The notes beneath the pieces were generated by a model. It worked only from the letters and a program-made list of their open reading frames with translations, was not told the origin of the DNA and did not search any database. From contig OZ242205.1 of assembly GCA_965206285.1 (NCBI GenBank), positions 2,067,431-2,131,430 of the forward strand: a stretch of DNA of 64,000 nt, in the 5' to 3' direction. Positions 38,831-62,616 of the stretch are shown piece by piece. Origin of the DNA: Vicinamibacterales bacterium. GTDB lineage: Bacteria > Acidobacteriota > Vicinamibacteria > Vicinamibacterales > UBA8438. A program made the translations under genes and the position numbers. Every line of letters begins with the position of its first letter. Positions within the stretch are counted from its first letter, which is position 1.

Positions 38831-40045
38831 TCAACAACGCCCGTGGCTCGGCTGGAGGACCCCCTCTCTGACCAGTCGCGTCACCAGGGTCAGCTTCCCT
38901 TCGGCATCCAGACAGTCGGGCAGGTCCTGGACGGCGAACTCGTCGGCCGTCGCGGCGAACTGCAGGGCCGGCCACACGCCGGCCGGCAGCCTGAGCTCGC
39001 GGCCACAGAACCGGAGGAGGCACGTCTCGCCCTCCGTCACGGCTTCGGTGAGCAGCCCGGCGCGGCGTCTCACCCGCGAGCGGGGCGTCAGCCGGTCTCC
39101 GCGGAGCCGCTGGCCGAGCAGGTCGGTGAACAGCGGTACGTCGGTGGCCAGGATCTCGTCCGTGAAGCGGCGCCACACGACCTCGGGATCGAACCGCGAC
39201 TGCACCAACGCCAGCTTCTCGCCGAACAGACGCGCTCGCTCGGCGACGGGAACCCCCCCGCGAGCGAACTCGCGAGGGAGATTCCGGCGCAGCGATTCTT
39301 CCTCGATCGCCGCCGCGGTGACGCTCTCGACGAGGAACTCGGCCCAGGTGAACGCCGTGAGCCCGAGCGTGACGTGCAACGACGCCTCACCCGTCGAACG
39401 GGCCGAGTGCATCAGGCCGCGCGGCAGGTAGACGGCGCTGCCCGGGCCGAGCTCGAACTCGTCGCTGACGTCGCCGGGAGGCGTGCCGCGTTCGAAGCCC
39501 TGGCCCCGGAGCGGCAGTCTCACCTTGGTGTCGTAGATCGACCAGCGCTTCGTGCCGTTGATCTGCAGCACGAAGACGTCGTGGGTGTCCCAGTGCGGGG
39601 CGAATCCCTGCGCGTCGGGCGGCGTGAGATACACGTTGGTCTGGACCCGCGACGAGAAGCGCCGCCCGAGCGCGACGCACAGCCGGGCCAGCGCCGGCAC
39701 GCGCTTGTGGAGCTGGTTGAAGACGACGGTCGCGCCGTCGTCGAAGCGCCTCGCGACCTCGAGCGGATGGATCTTGCCGGCGTCGTTCGCGTACTCGCGG
39801 GGGGGGACGTCGCCGTCGCCCCGGACCAGGCTGATGTCGCGATGGCCGGCCGAGTGGGTGCCCAGCACGAGGTCGAGGTCGGTCACCGACAGGAGCTCGG
39901 CGTAGTACGGGGACGCCATGCGCCGGATGTGGAAGAGCCGTTGCTCGTAGTAGTCGCGTTCGAACTCCGCGGTCGGCAGCGGATCGATGAGCCAGGCGTA
40001 CCAGTCGCGGTCTGTCGCCGGTCCTGGCCTGGTGTGGTCCGTCAT
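38831..40045 (-). CDS. JmjC/Cupin_4 Fe(II)/2-oxoglutarate oxygenase (YcfD/NO66-like)
   Basis: NVYLTP, FAPHWDTHDVFVLQ..GTKRW (HxD, K), YLPRGLMHSA (distal His). C-terminal LVREGVL helix. Confidence 0.85.
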   Translation of the reverse strand: MTDHTRPGPATDRDWYAWLIDPLPTAEFERDYYEQRLFHIRRMASPYYAELLSVTDLDLVLGTHSAGHRDISLVRGDGDVPPREYANDAGKIHPLEVARRFDDGATVVFNQLHKRVPALARLCVALGRRFSSRVQTNVYLTPPDAQGFAPHWDTHDVFVLQINGTKRWSIYDTKVRLPLRGQGFERGTPPGDVSDEFELGPGSAVYLPRGLMHSARSTGEASLHVTLGLTAFTWAEFLVESVTAAAIEEESLRRNLPREFARGGVPVAERARLFGEKLALVQSRFDPEVVWRRFTDEILATDVPLFTDLLGQRLRGDRLTPRSRVRRRAGLLTEAVTEGETCLLRFCGRELRLPAGVWPALQFAATADEFAVQDLPDCLDAEGKLTLVTRLVREGVLQPSHGRC

Positions 40046-40191
40046 CAGTATGAGCGCTCCGTGCAAGGCGACCGATTGGTACTTCGTTCTCGCGCGATGG
40101 TCATGGCGGTCGCGTCACAGCTTGACAACCATGGCACGCGCCCCTAGGATACTGGGACTCATTCTCATCTTTCAAGCTCAGGAGAAACGTC

Positions 40192-40470
40192 ATGCGCAAA
40201 CCGGAAAACCGGAAGCCCGACGCGAATCATCAGGGGTCGCCGACGTCGCTGACGGACGCCGACATCACCACCGTCCGGGTCGATCGCCGCTCGTTTCTCT
40301 CGCGTGCGGTCGCGGCCGGCTCGATCGCGGTGGGTGCCGCCATGACCGCGGCCTGCCCCGGCGGGACCGACTCCGACGGCGAGGGCGATGCCGGCTCCCC
40401 GGCGACCGACTCCGACTCCCAGGAAACCGAGTCCGAGTCCCCGGCCACCGATTCCGACAGCGCCCCCTGA
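40192..40470 (+). CDS. 92-aa Tat-signal/lipobox peptide with acidic core containing three TDSD repeats
   Basis: AGGAG RBS, DRRSFL twin-arginine motif, hydrophobic stretch, TAA-C lipobox-like site, core PGGTDSDGEGDAGSPATDSDSQETESESPATDSDSAP. Confidence 0.75.
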   Translation: MRKPENRKPDANHQGSPTSLTDADITTVRVDRRSFLSRAVAAGSIAVGAAMTAACPGGTDSDGEGDAGSPATDSDSQETESESPATDSDSAP

Positions 40471-40732
40471 GCCCGAGGGCAGCGACCGGCATGAGGTTGC
40501 CGACCGCACCACGGGGCAGCCCGTCTTCGACCGTTTCGGGTGCTTGGCACACGGCAAGGTAACCTCCGACAGCACCCCCTGAGCAGCCCTCGCGACGCCC
40601 GCCTGCGGTCCCCGGCCCGGGCCGGGCGCTCGCGAACCCGCGAGCCGCAGCGGACGGCTCCTCGCGCGGCGCCGTCCGGCGAGATCCCGCCAACCCGGGG
40701 GCGGGGGCTTCCGTCCCGAGACGCGACCGGAC

Positions 40733-41878
40733 ATGTCCCTGCGCAAGGCGATCTTCTGGATCCATCTGGCGGTCGGAGTCACCGCCGCTGTCGTGATCCT
40801 CATGCTGGCGGCGACCGGCGTCATCCTCACCTACGAGGCGCAGCTCGACCGGTGGGCGCTTCGCGAGTATCGCGCCGAGGCGCCGGCCCCCGACGTCGCG
40901 CCGCTCGGGCTCGACGAGCTGATCGCGCGCGTCAACGACGGGGGGCGGGCCGGACTCGTCACTTCCGTGGCCTTGAAGAGCGATCCGCGCGAGCCGGCGG
41001 TGGTCGGGCTCGACGACGGAGCCACCGTCCACGCCGACCGCTTCACCGGCGAGCGGCTGGGCGATGGCAACACACGAACGCGACGCTTCCTCCGAAGCGT
41101 CCTGTACTGGCACCGGTGGCTCGCCCTCGAGGGGGAGTATCGGATCATCGGGCGGACGTTCACGGCCACCGCCAACCTCGGGTTCCTGTTTCTGCTCGTG
41201 AGCGGGCTCTACCTCTGGTGGCCGTCGACGGGCAGGCGCGCCGCCTGGAGACAGGCGCTGTGGTTTCGCCGCGGCCTCGGCGGGCGGCCGCGCGATTTCA
41301 ACTGGCACAGCGTGATCGGCTTCTGGTCGGCGGTTCCGCTCGCCGTCATCGTCGCCAGCGGCGCCACCATCTCCTATCAGTGGGCCGCCGACCTCGTCCA
41401 TCGCCTGGCCGGCGACACGCCGCCGTTCCAGACGTCGCCGCGGTCGTTGGAGCCGGTGACGCGGAACGACCTGTCCGTCACGCCGGACCCGGCGGCTTCG
41501 TCGGTCGACCTGCAGGCGCTGGCCGCGAAGGCCGTCGCCGAGACGCCCGGATGGCGAACGATGACGATCGGCCTTCCCGAGACGATTCACGATCCCGTTC
41601 GGGTCGCCGTCGACCGCGGGACGGCCCGCCAGCCGTCGAAGACCGAGGACCTTCTGTTCGACCGGGCAACCGGCGAGCTGGTCGGGCGCGCCGGCTACCC
41701 GACCTTCAGCCGCGGCTTCAAGGTCCGCCGCTGGTTGCGGTTTGCACATACCGGAGAGGTGTATGGCGTGGCCGGACAGTCGATCGCCGGCGTCGTGTCC
41801 CTGGGCGTCGCGGTCATGGTGTGGACCGGCCTCGCGATGAGCTGGCGCCGTTTCTTCGGCCCCGCCGGCCGAGCCTGA
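40733..41878 (+). CDS. PepSY-associated TM helix protein (iron-regulated membrane protein family)
   Basis: FWIHL, WHRWL, SGLYLWWP, NWHSVIGFW, RFAHTGE, TGLAM. Confidence 0.9.
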   Translation: MSLRKAIFWIHLAVGVTAAVVILMLAATGVILTYEAQLDRWALREYRAEAPAPDVAPLGLDELIARVNDGGRAGLVTSVALKSDPREPAVVGLDDGATVHADRFTGERLGDGNTRTRRFLRSVLYWHRWLALEGEYRIIGRTFTATANLGFLFLLVSGLYLWWPSTGRRAAWRQALWFRRGLGGRPRDFNWHSVIGFWSAVPLAVIVASGATISYQWAADLVHRLAGDTPPFQTSPRSLEPVTRNDLSVTPDPAASSVDLQALAAKAVAETPGWRTMTIGLPETIHDPVRVAVDRGTARQPSKTEDLLFDRATGELVGRAGYPTFSRGFKVRRWLRFAHTGEVYGVAGQSIAGVVSLGVAVMVWTGLAMSWRRFFGPAGRA

Positions 41879-41894
41879 CGGCCACCGAGTCACG

Positions 41895-41925
41895 TCGCTC
41901 CACGGGCCCGCGGCCCGTGGAGCGA
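41895..41925 (+). terminator. 14-bp perfect stem-loop after the PepSY gene
   Basis: tcgctccacgggcc-cgc-ggcccgtggagcga. No U-tract. Confidence 0.5.
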
Positions 41926-42146
41926 GTCGTGGCGGCGCCCGTAACAGATCGCCCCGTTATCAGACCCAAGGACCCCGTCCCCGACCGGGGGGTCGGGCCG
42001 CTTCGCGGGGCTCGCGAAGCGGCGGCGGCGAGATGCCAGGGCCGCGGCCCACCGCGCCGGCCGCGGCGGCGTCCGGGCCGGCCGCCGTTCCTGGACCGGG
42101 CGCGGCGCTCCCGGAAACCGGCGTTGCGTGTACCCTGCCTCCCCCA

Positions 42147-44600: not shown

Positions 44601-44979
44601 ATGGTCGCTCAGACACCCCGCCTCGCGGCGATCGCGCAACTCAAAAGCGGCTTGCAGGAACAGCTTTCACCCGGACGATCCACCGGCTACGTGGGCGGTC
44701 GCCTTGCAGGTACCTTGTCCGCCGGAGCAGGTGAGCCAGACATGTCTGGTGCACCGCCTGGGTGAAGCGGCGATACGGCGCCCAGGAAGCTATCCCGGTA
44801 AACGAATACTCACAACCGAGGCTTGAGACCTATGTGTCCGGCGTCGCGTTCATGGTCGGAGGCCGCTTTCCATGCCTAACTCGCACCTTCGTCGGGCTGC
44901 CCGCCGAATACAATCATGTGCTCCCGCGTGGGCCCGCTGCCAGGGTCGCGTTCGTCGCGTGTTGAATCATCCGTGGACC

Positions 44980-45609
44980 ATGACTACCGTTACGCCCTTG
45001 GTCTCGGTCGTGTTCATTTGCCATTTCTCAATGGTTGGTCTCTATCTGCTACCTCTAAATCCACTAAAGCTTGCTTACAATACGCAAGTAATGGGTTACA
45101 TTAACCCATTGTTTACGCAAAACTGGCATCTGTTCGCGCCCAACCCGGTCGATACGAGCATGTCATTGGTTGGGAAGTGTCGGGGCGCAGGCGTTGACAC
45201 GCCATGGTTCGATGTCACCTATGGCATTACAGAACGGCTGGGCCCCCGCGCATTTGCGTCTTCGTTGTCGTCCGTATTGCATCTCCAGTTGAGCTTAGCC
45301 CGGCAGTATCTTTTCGGTTTCGTTGAACTAGAACCTCTACTACAAGAGTTGTGTTTAGACCAACCTACGGTTGACTACTGTCGGATGCAGCGGGCAAGTA
45401 CGGATGAGGTGCGGGAGCAAGCAAAGCAGGCACTGGTGCGGCTCGTAACTGACCTTTGTGTAGACAGCGATTTACGCGCCGTTGACAGCGTCTACGTGAG
45501 AATTGTTGATCTTGAGTTCCCGCGTTTTTCCGAGCGCCACCTACCGGATACCGCGGGTACCGCGCACTACGTGGACATTGAATGGCAATCAATCCCCAAC
45601 GGGCAGTAA
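44980..45609 (+). CDS. SdpA/DUF5819-like protein
   Basis: N-terminal TM, YINPLFTQNWHLFAPNP. Start uncertain (could be 44872). Confidence 0.75.
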   Translation: MTTVTPLVSVVFICHFSMVGLYLLPLNPLKLAYNTQVMGYINPLFTQNWHLFAPNPVDTSMSLVGKCRGAGVDTPWFDVTYGITERLGPRAFASSLSSVLHLQLSLARQYLFGFVELEPLLQELCLDQPTVDYCRMQRASTDEVREQAKQALVRLVTDLCVDSDLRAVDSVYVRIVDLEFPRFSERHLPDTAGTAHYVDIEWQSIPNGQ

Positions 45610-46826
45610 AGCTGGCGAACCTCGGGCTGCGACGTTGCGTCACCGGCGCCGCGCTGACGCGCACGTCTTTGGGTCTGGCCATACTTTACGAGTATGCCGT
45701 CAACTACTCGTTGCGCCATTATCTGTGGGGGGAGGCTCGCATCACCCGGGACTTATCTGTGATCGGGCTCTTTTCGCCGTATCAGTGGTCGTCAGGTCCC
45801 TTTTCGTTCGAGCTGATCTTTCATGCGGGTATTTTTGTTACATGTCTGTTCGTGGCTGGCATTGGCGGCCGATTGACTACGATTGCGGTCTACATGCTAA
45901 CGGTGTCTCTGCAAGACCTGAACAGTCTGATTACCGATGGCGGAGATAATATTACACGCATTGTGTTGTTGTACATGATCTTCGCGGATCTCAGCGGTCG
46001 GCGGGATCGCGACGTGCCGCTGGCTGTGGGTCTTCTCCATAACGCAGCCATCCTTGCAGTCGCTGTCCAGTTGTCCATGCTGTATCTGTCAACCGGACTA
46101 TACAAAGCGATGGGTGAGCACTGGCAAAACGGCGTTGCAGTGTATTATGTGATGCGCGTAAACGCCTTCGCTTGGACGGGAATAGGACAGCATATCTACC
46201 CCAGCATGATAGCCGTTGTGGTGTTAACATATGCCACGGTCTTGTTCGAGGTGGCGTTTCCGTTTATGCTGTTCAATCGGTGGACGCGCTGGTTTATGCT
46301 GGGTGCGGGTGTCATGTTTCATGTTGGTCTCGCGGCCGTTATGGGGCTGTTCGGTTTCTCGTGGATGATGTTGAGCCTGTATTTCGTGCTGGTGTCGGAC
46401 CGGGAATACGAACGCGTCAAGTCTTTGTTCTCCATAGCGGGGTCGGGCGTGGTGCTGTATGATGGCATGTGTGGGCTCTGCGGTAGGTTCGTCGGATTCG
46501 TGATGCATCGAGATAAGGGTGGGGTGTTTTGTTTTGAACGTCTGGAAGGCGAGGCCGGTAAACGGCTACTTGCATCTGAGGGTGTGCACGCGGACCGGTT
46601 GGATTCCATCTACGTAATCGATGAGAATGGTAGCCTGCTGGCAGGCTCGACAGCAGTGATCTTCATACTGCGGTGTTTGGGGTGGCCTTGGTGCTGGATT
46701 GCGCCGTTGGGTGTGCTGCCACGAAGGATGCGAGATGCGCTATACAATTGTATTGCGCGCAACCGTTACGCGATTGGAGGTGCCTGCGGTTTGGAAGCAA
46801 GCAAGCATGGAACGGGTCGTTCATAA
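45582..46826 (+). CDS. SdpB-like HTTM-domain protein fused to a DCC1/DUF393 thiol-disulfide domain
   Basis: NSLITDGGDNI, QLSMLYLSTGLYKAMGEHWQNG, FH. C-terminal VLYDGMCGLC...YNCIARNRY. Confidence 0.8.
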   Translation: MAINPQRAVKLANLGLRRCVTGAALTRTSLGLAILYEYAVNYSLRHYLWGEARITRDLSVIGLFSPYQWSSGPFSFELIFHAGIFVTCLFVAGIGGRLTTIAVYMLTVSLQDLNSLITDGGDNITRIVLLYMIFADLSGRRDRDVPLAVGLLHNAAILAVAVQLSMLYLSTGLYKAMGEHWQNGVAVYYVMRVNAFAWTGIGQHIYPSMIAVVVLTYATVLFEVAFPFMLFNRWTRWFMLGAGVMFHVGLAAVMGLFGFSWMMLSLYFVLVSDREYERVKSLFSIAGSGVVLYDGMCGLCGRFVGFVMHRDKGGVFCFERLEGEAGKRLLASEGVHADRLDSIYVIDENGSLLAGSTAVIFILRCLGWPWCWIAPLGVLPRRMRDALYNCIARNRYAIGGACGLEASKHGTGRS

Positions 46827-46842
46827 TAAAGGAGGAGAAGCG

Positions 46843-47199
46843 ATGATGATGCGCAAGTCGATGTGTGTTGTTCTTATGCTGACGCTCGTCGGGGCGCTGG
46901 CGCTGGCCGGTGGAGACCACGTAGTCTACGCAACCGCGAGTCCAACATTGGACGTCATGTCCGAAGCTGTGATGGCGAACGATGCGGACCCGAGGGGCCT
47001 ACCGTTTGCCGCATTGGTGGCTGCCAGAGCGGCGGCCGCGGCAGCAAGAAACGCCGCAGTCAGGCGGGCGGTTGTCCAAGGCGGGAAGTGGGTGGGTGAG
47101 GCTATCGGCGCGGGTTTTTTTTACGACTACTTTTTCGGAGGCTACATGCCGGGTGAGGATGAATACGTCGGGGTCAATGAAGCAATGGTCAACTTCTAG
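46843..47199 (+). CDS. Secreted peptide precursor, SdpC-like position (118 aa)
   Basis: Strong AAGGAGG RBS, Sec signal, DPR/GLPF junction, Ala-rich cationic helix, aromatic/acidic tail. Confidence 0.65.
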   Translation: MMMRKSMCVVLMLTLVGALALAGGDHVVYATASPTLDVMSEAVMANDADPRGLPFAALVAARAAAAAARNAAVRRAVVQGGKWVGEAIGAGFFYDYFFGGYMPGEDEYVGVNEAMVNF

Positions 47200-47279
47200 C
47201 TAGTGGACGAACTACGTCCGGCCGAGAGAGAAGGCGGGTGTCGTGACTTGCCGTGAGTGACAGTCAGGCGGGGTTACCA

Positions 47280-58388: not shown

Positions 58389-59465
58389 TCAGGAAGCCGA
58401 TGCGCCGACGACGGCGGGAAACCGGATCTCGAACATTCGGCTCGCGCGGACGGTGACCGAGACGGCATCGCGCCCGGGATCGGGGACCAGAAACAGGGCC
58501 GCGACTCCGTGCTGCTCCGCGTGGTCGAGGCCGTTGTCCGCTCCCATCACATAGAGCGCCGTCGAGAGGATGTCGGCGGCCAGTGGGTCCTCGTGCCATA
58601 CGGTAACGGACTCCGGCCGGTGGATCGGCTGTCCCGTCCGAGGATCGAGGATGTGACCCACCGGCCGGCCGTCGACTACCCGGGACCGCTCAGAGGCCCC
58701 GCTCGTGGCGAGCGAACCGGTCGTGAGGGTGAGCGCCAGCGCCACCTGATGCCGCCGGGCGGGATGGGCGATGGCTACCGGCCAACCGGCTCCGGCGGGC
58801 TGCCCGCCCACCGCGATCTGACCTCCGAAGTCGACCATCCACGGATCGCCGTCGGCCGAGGCGTCGACGAGCCGCCGCAGGGCCTCGCCCTTGCCGAACG
58901 CCCCGGCATCGAGGGTCGCGTCCGCCGCGCGCGTGACGCGGCAGGTCTCGGCATCGAAGCGGAAGTGGGCAAGACCGGTCGCCGCCCGCGCCGCGCTCGG
59001 GACTTCCGGCGCCGGCACTGCGCTCCCCGCGCGCAGTCCCCACGCCTCGACGAGCCGCCCGACGGCCGGGTCGAACGCCCCGCCGGTCAGGCGATGCCAC
59101 CGCGCGAGCCGGGGCCAAAGGCCGCACAGGGCCGGCGGCAGCCCGAACGGCTCGCCGATCGGCTGCCGGTTGAGGGCGCCGAGGACACTGTCGACCCGCC
59201 ACGTGCTCAGCGACGCCTCGGTGCGCTCGATCACCCCGACCATCCGCTCGAGCGCATGCAGCCCGGCCGAACGGTCGGCCGCCTGCACGACCAGGATCGC
59301 CCACGTCCCCATCAGGTAGACCGTGCGCTCGACCTGAATCGGGGCGGCGGCGGGCGTCTGTCGAACCCCGGCGAAACCACCGGCACGCCACGGCGCCTCG
59401 GCGATCGTCAGCGCCGTTCCGCCGCACGCCAGGCAGACCGCCGCGACGATCGTCACGGCTTTCAT
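58389..59465 (-). CDS. apbE: FAD:protein FMN transferase
   Basis: LMGT, GAFDPAVG, LDAGAFGKG, DFGG, LATSG, HILDPRTG, ADILSTAL. Confidence 0.9.
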   Translation of the reverse strand: MKAVTIVAAVCLACGGTALTIAEAPWRAGGFAGVRQTPAAAPIQVERTVYLMGTWAILVVQAADRSAGLHALERMVGVIERTEASLSTWRVDSVLGALNRQPIGEPFGLPPALCGLWPRLARWHRLTGGAFDPAVGRLVEAWGLRAGSAVPAPEVPSAARAATGLAHFRFDAETCRVTRAADATLDAGAFGKGEALRRLVDASADGDPWMVDFGGQIAVGGQPAGAGWPVAIAHPARRHQVALALTLTTGSLATSGASERSRVVDGRPVGHILDPRTGQPIHRPESVTVWHEDPLAADILSTALYVMGADNGLDHAEQHGVAALFLVPDPGRDAVSVTVRASRMFEIRFPAVVGASAS

Positions 59466-60001
59466 GGGGCAAGCGGGGCCGCGGGGCGGAGCGTGCCGGG
59501 ACGGCGGCCGAGCCGCCAGCCGATGACCATGTGGGTGGTGTAGCCGACCGCGAAGATGGCGCTCGCGGCGACGTGGATCCAGATCCACGCCGTGATCCAC
59601 GCGGGACTCGCGGTGACCTGGATGAGATAGCCGGTCAACGCCATCACCGAGAAGCCGACCAGCGACGTCCAACCCGTCCTCCGGTTCCGGGGGCTCGCCG
59701 ACAGCAGCTTGCGCAGGGTGTGCGTCCGGAAGAGCATGCCGAAGAAGACGACGAAGAACGGTGCGGCGACGATGTGCCAGGCGAGCATGGACGGCTGCCA
59801 GGAATGATTGACGACCGCGAAGGGATCGGTGGAGGCCATCAGGTACTTCATGCAGAAGTAGGCGATGCCGGTCGCCGCCACCACGGCGTGGAGAAGGTTG
59901 AAGGCCCACCTCTCCCACCACGTCATCGACAGAGTGACGGCCGGAGGTTGCGCGGCGGGCCGACGGCGGTCCGCCGCGTCGCGCTTCACCGGGCTGTGCA
60001 T
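59462..60001 (-). CDS. Four-TM membrane protein with conserved His (possible heme b binding)
   Basis: DPFAVVNHSWQ..LAWHI, RTH, WIHV. Stop overlaps the apbE start. Confidence 0.6.
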   Translation of the reverse strand: MHSPVKRDAADRRRPAAQPPAVTLSMTWWERWAFNLLHAVVAATGIAYFCMKYLMASTDPFAVVNHSWQPSMLAWHIVAAPFFVVFFGMLFRTHTLRKLLSASPRNRRTGWTSLVGFSVMALTGYLIQVTASPAWITAWIWIHVAASAIFAVGYTTHMVIGWRLGRRPGTLRPAAPLAP

Positions 60002-60166
60002 GACCGATACCCACCTCGGACGCCGCGCCACCCGGGGCCCGCGGCGAGCGCACGACTGCCATTCGCCCCCGACGCACGGGGTGCCACGACCGCCTCAGTC
60101 ATCGGAGCCGGAGGCCGGCACCCCATCCTGGACCTCGCGGCGCTCTCCGGCATGAACGCGGCCGGC

Positions 60167-60715
60167 TCATTCAGCCGCGCCGCGCTCCAGCACCTGGTCG
60201 GTGGCCAGCACGCGCCGCACGGCCGCGTTCGTGGCGACCCCCGACAGGGTCGCGCCGGCAATCGTTCGGATCGCCCGGCGCAGCGCCAGGTCGTCGTCGA
60301 GCGGACGGTCGTCGTACTGCGCGAGCCACCGCTCGGACGGCAGATACTCGATGGGCTCGAGGAAGGCGGTTACGTCGATGCGCTTCACCGTGCCGTCCGC
60401 GTGCAGCGATATCAGCAGGCTCTCGCGCTTCGTGCGCACGACGTGCGTATCGACGTACGCACGCCCCACGACGGCCCCGTCCTTCGTCGCCACGTAACGG
60501 GCGACGAGGCCGCTCACGTCGTCGACCCGGGCCAGCTCGCCGATCGCTCGGCGCTGGGCCCGGGTCAGGAAGACGCGCTCGGCCGGCGCCTCGGCGCCGG
60601 GAAAGACGGCGGCCAGGGCCTCCTCGCGCGTGATGCGGCCGCCCTGCGCGGAGAGCCCCGCGCCGGCCGCGACCAGCAACGCCAATGTCATCCCACCCGC
60701 CAGGCGTAATCGCAT
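60167..60715 (-). CDS. Secreted FMN-binding protein
   Basis: Signal peptide, AFLEPIEY, WLAQY, flavinylation-like motif TIAGATLS. Confidence 0.8.
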   Translation of the reverse strand: MRLRLAGGMTLALLVAAGAGLSAQGGRITREEALAAVFPGAEAPAERVFLTRAQRRAIGELARVDDVSGLVARYVATKDGAVVGRAYVDTHVVRTKRESLLISLHADGTVKRIDVTAFLEPIEYLPSERWLAQYDDRPLDDDLALRRAIRTIAGATLSGVATNAAVRRVLATDQVLERGAAE

Positions 60716-60810
60716 CGTCAACTCGCGCGCCTCCTGCGTACCGCAGGCAGCCGCCGCTTTCCGGCCGAGCGCGCGAGGGGCAGGAACGTCCACCGCCGCA
60801 CTCGGCTACC

Positions 60811-62250
60811 TCAGAACGCGTACCCCAGGTTGATGTTGAACTGGTTTACTCCGGAGTTCGCGTCGTTGCTCACCCAGGCGTGGTCGATCTTGAGGACGAC
60901 GCCCGGGTTCGGCTTCAGCTCGATGCCGAACGTCAGGTACGTGTTGTCGGTCGAGAGGCTGCGCTCGAAGCCGGCCGGCATCTCGGCCTGGGTATCGACC
61001 GTTTCGTAGCGCACGTAGGGCGTCAGGCCCACGCCTCCGGCCTCAGGGACCTGGGACAGCAGATCGTAGCCGATCTGGATGTACTGACCCGCCAGCCCCG
61101 AGCCCACGCCGCTGCTGCCACTCTTCCCCAGCGCCATGTTGAGCATGGCCGCGTCGGAGAGGCTGGCGCGCGCCATGAGCGCCCGCAGGTCGAACCCGCG
61201 CACCTGGGCCTGACCGTGCAGGTCGAAGATGGTGGTGCCGATGCCGTACTCGGTGCCGTCCATGACGATTTCGCCCTGCCCCGAATCACCGGTGTAGAAG
61301 CTGGCCCCGAAGAAGACGCCCGGCGTGGGCGTGACGTCGAGCCGCCCGGTGAAGGCGAGGCTCGTCGACTTGGCCTTGCCGCCCTTCTGGCGGCCCCCGC
61401 GCAGGCCGCCCGACGAGAAGCTCGACCCGTTGAAGCCGTTGAGGACGTAGGCCCGGAACGACACCTGGTCGAAGGCGCCGTAGAAGCCGCCGCCGTTCTC
61501 GCGCCAGGTCGACGGGATGATCCTGTTCTCGGTGACGGGCCGCTCGGCCCCCATGAACACCGTCGGCTCGTGGAACTCGTTCACCAGCCCCATCGGCACC
61601 AGCAGCATGCCGCCCCGCAGCCCGAAGCTCTCCGTCGCCTGGTAGTCGACGTAGGCGAACTCGACGAAGATCTCCTTGGCGTGCTCGACCTCGATCTCGG
61701 AGTTGAACAGGAACTTGTCGCTGAACCGGTAGCCGGCGTAGAGAATGGCGCGCAGATAGTCGAACTGCGTCGTCTTGCCGCTGCTGTCGGCGTAGTTCTC
61801 GAGCAGCATCTCGCCGTACCCGGCGATGGACACGCCGCGATCGATGGCGTAGGTCGCGGATGCCGACGGGGCGAGCCCCAGCCGCCGCGCCTCGTCGACG
61901 TCCAGGCGCTCGTCCTCGCCGCTCCGCAGCCGTTCGATCTCCTCGGCCAGCACGTCGATGCGCCGCTCGAGCTCGGCGACGTCGGCCTCCTGCTCCGCCT
62001 CCGCCGCTTCGGCCTCCTCGGCGACCTCGGGCTCCTCGGCCTCGGGGTCCGGCTCGGCTTCGGGATCCGCGACCGCCTCGACGGCCCCCGGGGCACCTGC
62101 AACCACGGCCGGAGCTCCGGCCTCGGCAGGGATCGTCCGCCCGGTGTCCGCCAGGGCCCCCTGTGCCGACGCGGTGGCGGCGATGCCGCAGATCATGGTC
62201 ACGATGAGCACGTACTCGATGAGCCGGCGGCGGTCGTTCGTCATGGGCAT
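60811..62250 (-). CDS. Outer-membrane porin-like protein
   Basis: Signal peptide, coiled coil, IAGYGE, FNSEIEVEH, EFAYVDY, NEFHEP, terminal LGYAF. Start among 62244/62250/62274. Confidence 0.75.
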   Translation of the reverse strand: MPMTNDRRRLIEYVLIVTMICGIAATASAQGALADTGRTIPAEAGAPAVVAGAPGAVEAVADPEAEPDPEAEEPEVAEEAEAAEAEQEADVAELERRIDVLAEEIERLRSGEDERLDVDEARRLGLAPSASATYAIDRGVSIAGYGEMLLENYADSSGKTTQFDYLRAILYAGYRFSDKFLFNSEIEVEHAKEIFVEFAYVDYQATESFGLRGGMLLVPMGLVNEFHEPTVFMGAERPVTENRIIPSTWRENGGGFYGAFDQVSFRAYVLNGFNGSSFSSGGLRGGRQKGGKAKSTSLAFTGRLDVTPTPGVFFGASFYTGDSGQGEIVMDGTEYGIGTTIFDLHGQAQVRGFDLRALMARASLSDAAMLNMALGKSGSSGVGSGLAGQYIQIGYDLLSQVPEAGGVGLTPYVRYETVDTQAEMPAGFERSLSTDNTYLTFGIELKPNPGVVLKIDHAWVSNDANSGVNQFNINLGYAF

Positions 62251-62616
62251 GTCTCCTTCACGGATTGGTTGCATACCCCGACCGTCGCCCTATAATGGCC
62301 TTGCTGGACAAGTCAAAGCCGCGACTTGCTGAAGGGGGTAGCGGTGCGTGACGGTTCAGTTGGCCCGCCGGGTGTTGCCGCACCCGCGGGCCTTCTTTTC
62401 TCGGCCGGTCTTGCTTCGGCAGTTTTGCCGACCAGTAGCCTGCCCGGCCAAAGTTGAGACCAAATCTCAACTTCCGGGCGCAACTATACGCGCCTGGCGA
62501 TCCGTCGTCAACACAAAAGTGCGACGCGATCTCAATTCTTGCCCTTTGAACCGAATCTCCCACCGCCGTCGGAGTCACGACCGCGGGATTCGGGAGCACA
62601 GGGGGAGGGGCATCGA

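Follow-up and report, generated by a model that had tools for sequence, protein, structure and literature searches.

A conserved JmjC oxygenase–precursor peptide gene pair and its possible recruitment to iron uptake in an acidobacterial clade

Introduction

What does an oxygenase with the fold of ribosomal-protein hydroxylases do beside a gene for a short, acidic peptide with a predicted export signal? The question is raised by positions 38831–41925 of a 64,000-nucleotide stretch of a Vicinamibacterales genome (assembly GCA_965206285.1, contig OZ242205.1, positions 2,067,431 to 2,131,430 of the forward strand), hereafter called the window. Here a JmjC oxygenase gene lies head-to-head with a 92-residue open reading frame (ORF), which is followed on its own strand by a gene for a PepSY-associated transmembrane (TM) protein. 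The original prediction, made from the letters alone, had the oxygenase beta-hydroxylating Asp residues of the peptide and three TDSD motifs supplying three bidentate ligands for iron. We find that oxygenase and peptide form a conserved gene pair found in six phyla. The best reading of the sequence evidence is an enzyme–precursor pair, akin to those of peptides that are made on ribosomes and modified after translation (RiPPs), that was recruited to iron uptake in this acidobacterial clade.

An oxygenase–peptide gene pair

The oxygenase gene (38831–40045, minus strand; Pfam JmjC_2, E 2e-25) is real and encodes 404 residues, with an intact HxD...H triad (H151-x-D153...H213) that is invariant across 138 aligned relatives. 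Its start codon lies 146 bp from that of the peptide gene, in the head-to-head arrangement that had been put at about 150 bp. The peptide ORF (40192–40470, plus strand) is likewise genuine and has the parts first read into it: a ribosome-binding site at 40180, a twin-arginine motif (DRRSFL) from residue 31, a lipobox Cys55 after TAA, and 37 residues past the Cys, with TDSD at residues 59, 72 and 86 and SPATDSDS at 69 and 83. The PepSY_TM gene (40733–41878, plus strand; E 6e-46) also stands where it was described.

Within the genus, 20 of the 21 genomes besides the source genome carry the peptide (41 genomes searched). The oxygenase is head-to-head with it in all of the 20 best close loci, with the PepSY gene inside the fetched stretch in 19 and about 2.5 kb away in the twentieth; being kin, these close loci count as one observation. 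Loci with 80–97% enzyme identity are assigned to Vicinamibacterales, Bryobacterales and Thermoanaerobaculia, and near-identical loci across these groups suggest transfer between lineages.

The wider sample took the 80 top-ranked loci from each of two sets, at least 588 genome loci and at least 590 metagenome loci. We classed as distant the 127 loci whose oxygenase shares less than 70% identity; in 67 of them each flank measures 1 kb or more. In 57 of these 67, a leader profile placed a peptide within 1 kb of the oxygenase, and the count rose to 61 after adding a pattern free of the twin-arginine pair (RR), bearing out the conserved peptide neighbour that the original prediction called for. No peptide was detected within 1 kb in the other six (L089, L094, L115, L166, L182 and L183). 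The RR-free pattern alone gave 80 matches within 1 kb (206 kb searched) versus two beyond 2 kb (470 kb). Since distant loci had seeded the first profile, a held-out profile was built from only the 120 close peptides; in 34 of 44 loci with less than 45% identity its top match fell within 1 kb, against 7.9 expected.

The peptide gene lies upstream of the oxygenase in 52 cases, divergent in 24 and downstream in 20, and its carriers belong to Acidobacteriota, Alphaproteobacteria, Myxococcota, Planctomycetota, Gemmatimonadota and Bacteroidota. Actinomycetota was not counted on the strength of L066, a locus labelled Bifidobacterium that is possibly mis-binned, its enzyme grouping with metagenome and acidobacterial-type loci. 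Across 401 Acidobacteriota genomes, all nine strong peptide matches lie beside one of the 11 enzyme matches of at least 200 bits; four weak peptide matches (near E 1e-6) have no adjoining oxygenase, and one of these, on inspection, was a different Tat (twin-arginine translocation) protein. Genomes G013 and G024 hold additional peptide copies unlinked to the oxygenase. The conserved oxygenase–precursor gene pair is real.

A few loci depart from the common layout. Same-group oxygenases in L094:3282-5526 and L166:6004-8338, where the peptide was not detected, are each followed by a radical S-adenosylmethionine (SAM) gene. The oxygenase of L223:3785-5950 (genome G359) is split by frameshifts and adjoins an intact-looking peptide, and an insertion sequence sits between oxygenase and peptide in L022.

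Anatomy of the precursor peptide

The peptide is more than a chance ORF, since it is the sole six-frame ORF with at least two TDSD motifs in the 7.07-Mb genome, has 159 homologous clusters (the named ones all from Acidobacteriota), keeps the lipobox-position Cys in 120 of 120 listed close homologues, and has codon changes concentrated at third positions (106, 118 and 263 at positions 1, 2 and 3 over 33 close loci). Pfam gave no match for 89 peptides of the family, and NCBIfam returned for the same 89 Tat-signal-type and low-complexity matches only, with no dedicated family. An ESM Atlas query with the peptide led to unnamed clusters at 0.87–0.90, which we regard as a lead only.

Three segments can be told apart. 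The first is a leader motif, L20-T-D-A-D-I25 (40249–40266, plus strand), of the L(X)4L type. Its consensus is T-L-[ST]-D-x-[DE]-[IM], and L-x-x-x-[DE]-[ILMV] is found in 90 of 101 distant peptides, 6–7 residues before the RR pair in 85. The second is the putative export signal (40282–40356, plus strand), in which DRRSFL is followed by a hydrophobic stretch and the lipobox TAA-C55; signals and lipoboxes were judged by sequence pattern throughout. The third is the acidic core (40354–40467, plus strand) with its three TDSD units and no Cys beyond the lipobox. A gene-encoded product with a conserved leader and a variable core, beside a tailoring enzyme, has the makings of a RiPP precursor.

Both the export signal and the lipid anchor proposed earlier hold in part. 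RR is present in 89 of 98 distant peptides, supporting Tat export, but it is absent from four Bacteroidota loci and so is not a family-wide trait. The lipobox, constant in the close homologues, ends the signal in 29 of the 98 distant peptides, and an AxA cleavage site does so in 59; such endings are as expected of a real export signal. The genome encodes TatC and two Lgt enzymes.

The exceptions bear on the role of the leader. The four Bacteroidota peptides without RR keep leader, lipobox and D-x-D core, and in the Streptomyces clavuligerus peptide, whose gene adjoins that of an S9 peptidase, leader and D-x-D core come without any signal. The leader is thus separable from Tat targeting, which matches the prediction for an enzyme-recognition site. 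These same versions count against the idea that the peptide is a Tat carrier taking the oxygenase, which shows no signal peptide of its own, to the periplasm as a bound passenger. Weak matches of 22 of the 89 peptides to a 'formate dehydrogenase region TAT target' model (best E 4.5e-8) would suit a carrier, but a carrier does not need Asp repeats, and we consider this role highly improbable.

Two types of locus show how far precursors can diverge in form. On a S. clavuligerus plasmid (L230:4784-8131), the oxygenase gene follows that of a 48-residue precursor, which lacks a signal, has the leader spacing of the other peptides and carries D-x-D-P-x-D-P repeats; the S9 peptidase comes next. Two Pararhodobacter-type loci (L098:3394-5826 and L099:3562-5834) have three precursors in a row each, one of them with 12–13 D-x-D units in Gly-Arg-Gly-rich repeats.

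Asp repeats of the core

D-x-D occurs in 97 of the 98 distant cores, compared with 71 in shuffles, and 347 times in total versus 175 in shuffled cores, D-S-D being the commonest form; this enrichment is somewhat inflated, because D-x-D was itself a criterion in first choosing some of the peptides. The spacings D-D and D-xxx-D are depleted. The distant cores contain 17.5% D and 1.9% E. His occurs in just 7 of 120 close cores.

The number of repeats is not constant. Exact TDSD is found zero, one, two or three times in 8, 65, 31 and 16 of the 120 close homologues, and D-x-D ranges from 0 to 16 per distant core, with a mode of 2. The reading of three motifs as three bidentate ligands fails on this variation, and we rejected a fixed three-ligand model.

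If the oxygenase acts on the peptide, Asp is the favoured target, because it is the only universal residue (98 of 98 distant cores) and D-x-D the only strongly enriched spacing. We regard the enzyme–substrate relation itself as very probable and beta-hydroxylation of Asp as likely. The oxygenase might instead act by another reaction or on another residue, with hydroxylation of Ser/Thr or Pro, or further oxidation of Asp. S, P and T are themselves frequent (97, 93 and 90 of 98 cores), relatives of the enzyme target Trp, Orn, His and Arg residues, and further oxidation can proceed by way of hydroxy-Asp. Against this stand the universality of D alone and the strong enrichment of D-x-D alone, and a second tailoring enzyme is not conserved; we judge this alternative improbable.

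Structure and phylogeny of the oxygenase

The oxygenase is NO66/MINA-like and not of the YcfD/RoxA type. Its best matches in the Protein Data Bank (PDB) are human MINA53 and NO66, at E 2e-30 to 3e-29, as against 7e-5 for YcfD, and the AlphaFold2 (AF2) model (predicted local distance difference test, pLDDT, 95) gave a Foldseek TMq of 0.75 to NO66 and 0.52 to YcfD. This Fe(II)/2-oxoglutarate (2OG) enzyme consists of JmjC, dimerisation and winged-helix domains with H151, D153 and H213 at the triad, the architecture of ribosomal oxygenases (ROX).

That architecture raises the prospect of a housekeeping ribosomal-protein hydroxylase in the role of YcfD or NO66, with incidental neighbours, and its being the sole JmjC_2 match in the genome and the database name of its relatives, 'L16 Arg81 hydroxylase', fit this account. 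The phylogeny does not. In a FastTree phylogeny of 107 rows, the 80 peptide-linked enzymes fall inside one 90-row group (support 86), and RoxA forms its own branch with L212 (support 100, midpoint root), the separation that the original prediction had made a check. The tree left out short-flank peptide-less loci, the majority of the close loci and one in two of the distant metagenome loci, and gave long-branch warnings among the outgroups. The enzyme is also patchy, with the 11 matches among 401 phylum genomes noted above, and it is tightly linked to the peptide in three orientations. Of the His-binding pair of MINA53, Tyr167 and Ser257 (accessible part of PMC9994133), the Tyr is kept (Y139, 80/80) and the Ser is replaced by Gly (G228, 80/80), in numbering taken from the alignment. 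The genome's own uL2 has no NHXH after its conserved motif, NHXH being the uL2 motif given in the accessible part of PMC4556315. A housekeeping role therefore appears very unlikely.

Some sister oxygenases without a Tat peptide have other neighbours. Three adjoin precursors of the nitrile hydratase leader peptide (NHLP) type (L032:5681-7363, L033:4845-7468 and L214:4127-6281), two of these with Asp-rich cores; the loci are further candidates for Asp-hydroxylating RiPP clusters. Another, L206:1474-9763, sits in a cluster that includes a LanC-like gene, a B12 radical SAM gene and three precursors of the double-glycine type with Asn/Asp-rich cores, whose leaders have L-S/N-D-x-D-L in common with the Tat peptides.

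A candidate leader-binding domain

The C-terminal winged-helix domain of the oxygenase (residues 318–400; 38846–39094, minus strand) has a beta3-alpha fold like that of RiPP recognition elements (RREs) and PqqD, and offers a candidate leader-binding site. Folded alone, it was modelled by AF2 with a pLDDT of 97. By VIA, it is closest to MINA (Z 12.5) and NO66 (Z 9.3), then to a methyltransferase domain (Z 8.2), followed mostly by RRE domains: PbtF (Z 7.6; root-mean-square deviation 2.9 over 75 residues), MccB (7.0), McbB (6.8), TigE, ThcOx and TbiB1-leader (6.7 each) and PqqD (6.2). Foldseek also finds the RRE likeness, and a sequence search of the domain against the PDB gave no match.

A precedent for such a leader grip comes from MppG. 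The C-terminal RRE of this Fe/2OG hydroxylase touches a leader motif of the L(X)4L type (accessible text of bioRxiv 10.64898/2026.10.04.756588), and L20-T-D-A-D-I25 has the same spacing. By this analogy and the structural models, and with sister oxygenases beside NHLP and double-glycine RiPP precursors, the C-terminal domain likely binds the L-x-D-x-D-I leader.

The PepSY-TM gene

The PepSY_TM protein has 381 residues (PF03929), and its four transmembrane His residues (11, 127, 192 and 339) fit the di-haem pattern of FoxB, with which it was compared by description. Three of them are invariant among the seven aligned PepSY_TM proteins and one is present in six. FoxB-type di-haem PepSY_TM reductases release iron in the periplasm, according to the accessible text of bioRxiv 10.1101/2021.01.28.428567. 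The protein is 41–42% identical to the PepSY proteins of TonB-receptor operons that carry the same promoter box as this locus (see below).

Occurrence beside the peptide was recounted by profile because tblastn had missed distant PepSY genes. The gene is near the peptide in 30 of 33 close, 2 of 21 mid-distance and 1 of 106 far loci, and in all 30 close loci with long flanks. The linkage that had been proposed thus stands for the close clade and does not extend to the distant loci (3 of 127). The sole far exception, L108 from Gemmatimonadaceae, combines all three, box, PepSY and lipopeptide. The PepSY there is of a second type, shared with L050, L062 and L090 and only 24–26% identical to the PepSY of this locus; two unrelated PepSY types beside the peptide suggest functional coupling, resting on few events. 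The first type also occurs without the peptide.

Contigs from four metatranscriptome runs of related strains cover all three genes, and two of them join peptide and PepSY. We did not count these contigs as evidence, since DNA carry-over was uncontrolled and contigs cannot show a single transcript.

Promoter matches and a Fur-like box

Two features escaped the original prediction, namely a dispersed repeat, described below, and a Fur-like palindromic box (40150–40170) set between overlapping divergent promoter matches; the latter newly backs an iron link for the locus. The peptide–PepSY unit is preceded by a sigma70-like match, TTGACA-17-TAGGAT (40122–40150, plus strand), and the box overlaps the start of the predicted peptide transcript. 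At least 9 of 12 promoter positions match in 31 of 33 close loci, versus 0.6 in shuffles. Toward the JmjC gene runs TTGAAA-18-TATCCT (40146–40175, minus strand), with the box in its spacer. This match is less conserved (15 of 33 loci versus 3.6 shuffled), and of 26 boxed loci 14 have the box so placed. Scored against the E. coli Fur consensus, the box has at most six mismatches in 22 of 33 close loci, compared with 0.1 when shuffled.

A matrix built from 16 relatives' sites, one identical to the box of this locus, gave four genomic sites above 26. These are this box, a site upstream of feoAB, one before a truncated TonB receptor–CbiX–major facilitator superfamily (MFS) unit and one before a Kelch protein–TonB receptor–CbiX unit. 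Lower sites precede an ApbE operon (19.2 and 18.6) and an NHL-repeat gene (20.3) or lie inside an ORF (19.4). Nine sites score at least 18, against 2.5 for permuted matrices; weaker matches are noise (28 versus 22 at a score of at least 14), and a site at bfd (15.9) was set aside as falling in that range. In two other families, perfect copies of the box (34.2 and 32.2) precede TonB receptor–PepSY operons. With two Fur genes in the genome and a palindromic promoter box common to iron-uptake genes, the box at 40150–40170 likely binds Fur.

Several boxed units lie elsewhere in the genome. At window positions ~58400–62520 (C1:2125822-2129967), two Fur-like boxes precede genes for a 487-residue and a 208-residue protein of no known kind and an ApbE flavin transferase, possibly an iron-regulated flavinylation/reduction unit. 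The unit just beyond the window (L200, C1:2130697-2136870) encodes a Kelch/pyrroloquinoline quinone (PQQ)-propeller protein, a TonB receptor and a CbiX-like chelatase. The truncated TonB receptor–CbiX–MFS unit is at C1:1812356-1816077.

Proposed function

Under the reading that we favour, iron shortage would lift repression at the box, and the C-terminal domain of the oxygenase would bind the L-x-D-x-D-I leader of the newly made peptide. The enzyme would then beta-hydroxylate Asp residues of the D-x-D repeats in the cytoplasm, and the modified peptide would be exported by Tat and lipidated at Cys55 by Lgt. Pairs of hydroxy-Asp on the lipopeptide could hold periplasmic Fe(III) through their alpha-hydroxy-carboxylates, the di-haem PepSY-TM protein would reduce this iron, and the resulting Fe(II) would be taken in by the co-boxed FeoAB. 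We put the probability of the complete chain, from modification through iron uptake in this clade, at roughly 0.5. Given modification, an iron-handling role here seems reasonably likely.

Several observations weigh against this chain. The PepSY gene is mostly missing outside the close clade, seven of the 33 close loci have no box, and the box is found in none of 17 mid-distance and one of 82 far loci; Irr/ICE and Fur boxes upstream of distant peptides were at or near shuffle level. CrpH, a PepSY_TM protein, is tied to copper rather than iron. Repeat number varies freely among homologues, and a survey of 529 neighbours of distant loci gave no third gene conserved between lineages. Family membership does not reveal the target residue, since related RiPP oxygenases modify Trp (MppG) or Orn (BipG). 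As for leader binding, the best fold matches are the winged-helix domains of NO66 and MINA, whose presence does not show it; the RRE scores are middling (Z 6–7.6), a shared fold shows no function, and an hhalign comparison of the domain with the four PqqD proteins of the genome was not significant (E 0.11).

The same clade restriction would be expected if the pair were real but its product a general acidic envelope peptide, binding Ca, a lanthanide or another metal or serving at the surface or in the matrix, with box and PepSY as co-regulated add-ons of one clade. Many distant cores have Cys pairs, Gly-Arg-Gly tails or Lys-rich spacers and up to 16 D-x-D, presumably resembling Ca-binding Asp repeats, and the occurrence of the same PepSY type without the peptide also suits this account. 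Against it, two unrelated PepSY types adjoin the peptide, a distant Gemmatimonadota locus combines box, PepSY and peptide, and PepSY is retained in every close locus with long flanks. We consider it rather unlikely, and return to iron uptake as the preferred reading for this clade.

If true, this would define a widespread, unannotated peptide-modification family in which a single enzyme goes with a leader of six residues and a D-x-D core free to repeat, and would provide the real substrate for hundreds of bacterial NO66-like 'L16 hydroxylases'. The NO66/MINA winged-helix domain would work as an RRE, and the hydroxy-Asp iron ligand of non-ribosomal siderophores could here be reached by a gene-encoded route. 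Peptide engineering would gain a portable Asp hydroxylase directed by a short leader, and Pararhodobacter aggregans, Pontivivens insulae and S. clavuligerus are cultured carriers of the pair.

Other features of the locus

The hairpin predicted after the PepSY gene exists (41878–41942, plus strand); it is GC-rich and single copy. It lacks a T-run and was not called as a terminator, and we rejected that reading. Between the peptide and PepSY genes lies the repeat mentioned above, ~100 bp long (40474–40573) and resembling a miniature inverted-repeat transposable element (MITE), with 55 blastn matches in the genome including this copy (~54 others). It is absent at this position from the other 46 related loci searched and is strain-specific here. 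A 20-nucleotide near-duplication that includes the peptide stop codon flanks it (40453–40472 and 40565–40584).

A low-GC region at window positions 44872–47200 encodes a DUF5819 (SdpA-like) protein, an HTTM/SdpB–DCC1 fusion and a small secreted Ala-rich ORF, and appears to be an Sdp-type peptide cluster.

Comparison with known systems

Targeted searches of the accessible literature yielded no description of a JmjC oxygenase paired with an Asp-repeat export peptide, though supplementary genome-mining tables could list such pairs. The comparisons that follow draw on the accessible parts of the cited sources.

The ribosomal oxygenases NO66/RIOX1, MINA53/RIOX2 and YcfD/RoxA share domain architecture and HxD...H triad with the enzyme described here (PMC6006756, PMC9994133). 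It differs from them in its patchy distribution, its fixed peptide neighbour, the change of Ser257 to Gly and its position apart from RoxA.

Among RiPP enzymes, MppG and the JmjC-type BipG (PMC12707348) are Fe/2OG hydroxylases, as is proposed for this oxygenase, and MppG, compared by description, shares the HxD...H triad and carries an RRE at its C-terminus, where the enzyme here has an RRE-like fold. Their targets are Trp or Orn, within multi-enzyme clusters whose leaders are of Nif11 or other types, whereas here no tailoring gene besides the oxygenase is conserved and the leader forms one piece with the export signal. The proposed reaction itself has precedents: SmaO hydroxylates both Asp of a D-G-D-G RiPP core (PMC12186529), and CanE (PMC9266682) and CinX (named in PMC12186529) are further Asp beta-hydroxylases. 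Their precursors and export routes differ from those described here, and nothing in the accessible parts of these sources describes the products as iron chelators.

Also related are the signal-peptide RiPP metallophores made with multinuclear non-haem iron oxidative enzymes (MNIOs), which bind copper and come with signal peptidase I (SPI) and lipobox (SPII) variants (PMC11626156, PMC13056109). Bufferins, oxazolins and DAG-RiPPs likewise combine a cytoplasmic non-haem iron enzyme with a precursor bearing a general export signal in SPI and SPII variants, and have the kind of periplasmic or membrane-anchored metallophore role that is proposed here. In those systems an MNIO (DUF692) acts on Cys motifs behind Sec-type signals, with copper as the metal, whereas the pair described here combines a JmjC/2OG enzyme with Asp repeats and with an L(X)4I leader that extends what are mostly Tat signals, and in this clade a Fur-like box and PepSY-TM join it.

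The beta-hydroxyaspartate siderophores offer a further comparison. Cyanochelin B is a lipopeptide siderophore with an iron-binding OH-Asp-Ser-OH-Asp unit (PMC12628792). Such siderophores are nonribosomal and diffusible, whereas the product here would be gene-encoded, of variable length and tethered. We tentatively propose, as a conjecture that may well fail, their ribosomal counterpart: a JmjC/precursor family of at least six phyla that makes tunable hydroxy-Asp arrays with a winged-helix domain as RRE and, in sponge-type acidobacteria, a Fur-controlled, tethered Fe(III) chelator feeding PepSY-TM and FeoAB. The conserved oxygenase–precursor family presents itself as an apparently undescribed variant among RiPP systems with signal peptides, one that is linked to iron uptake in this clade.

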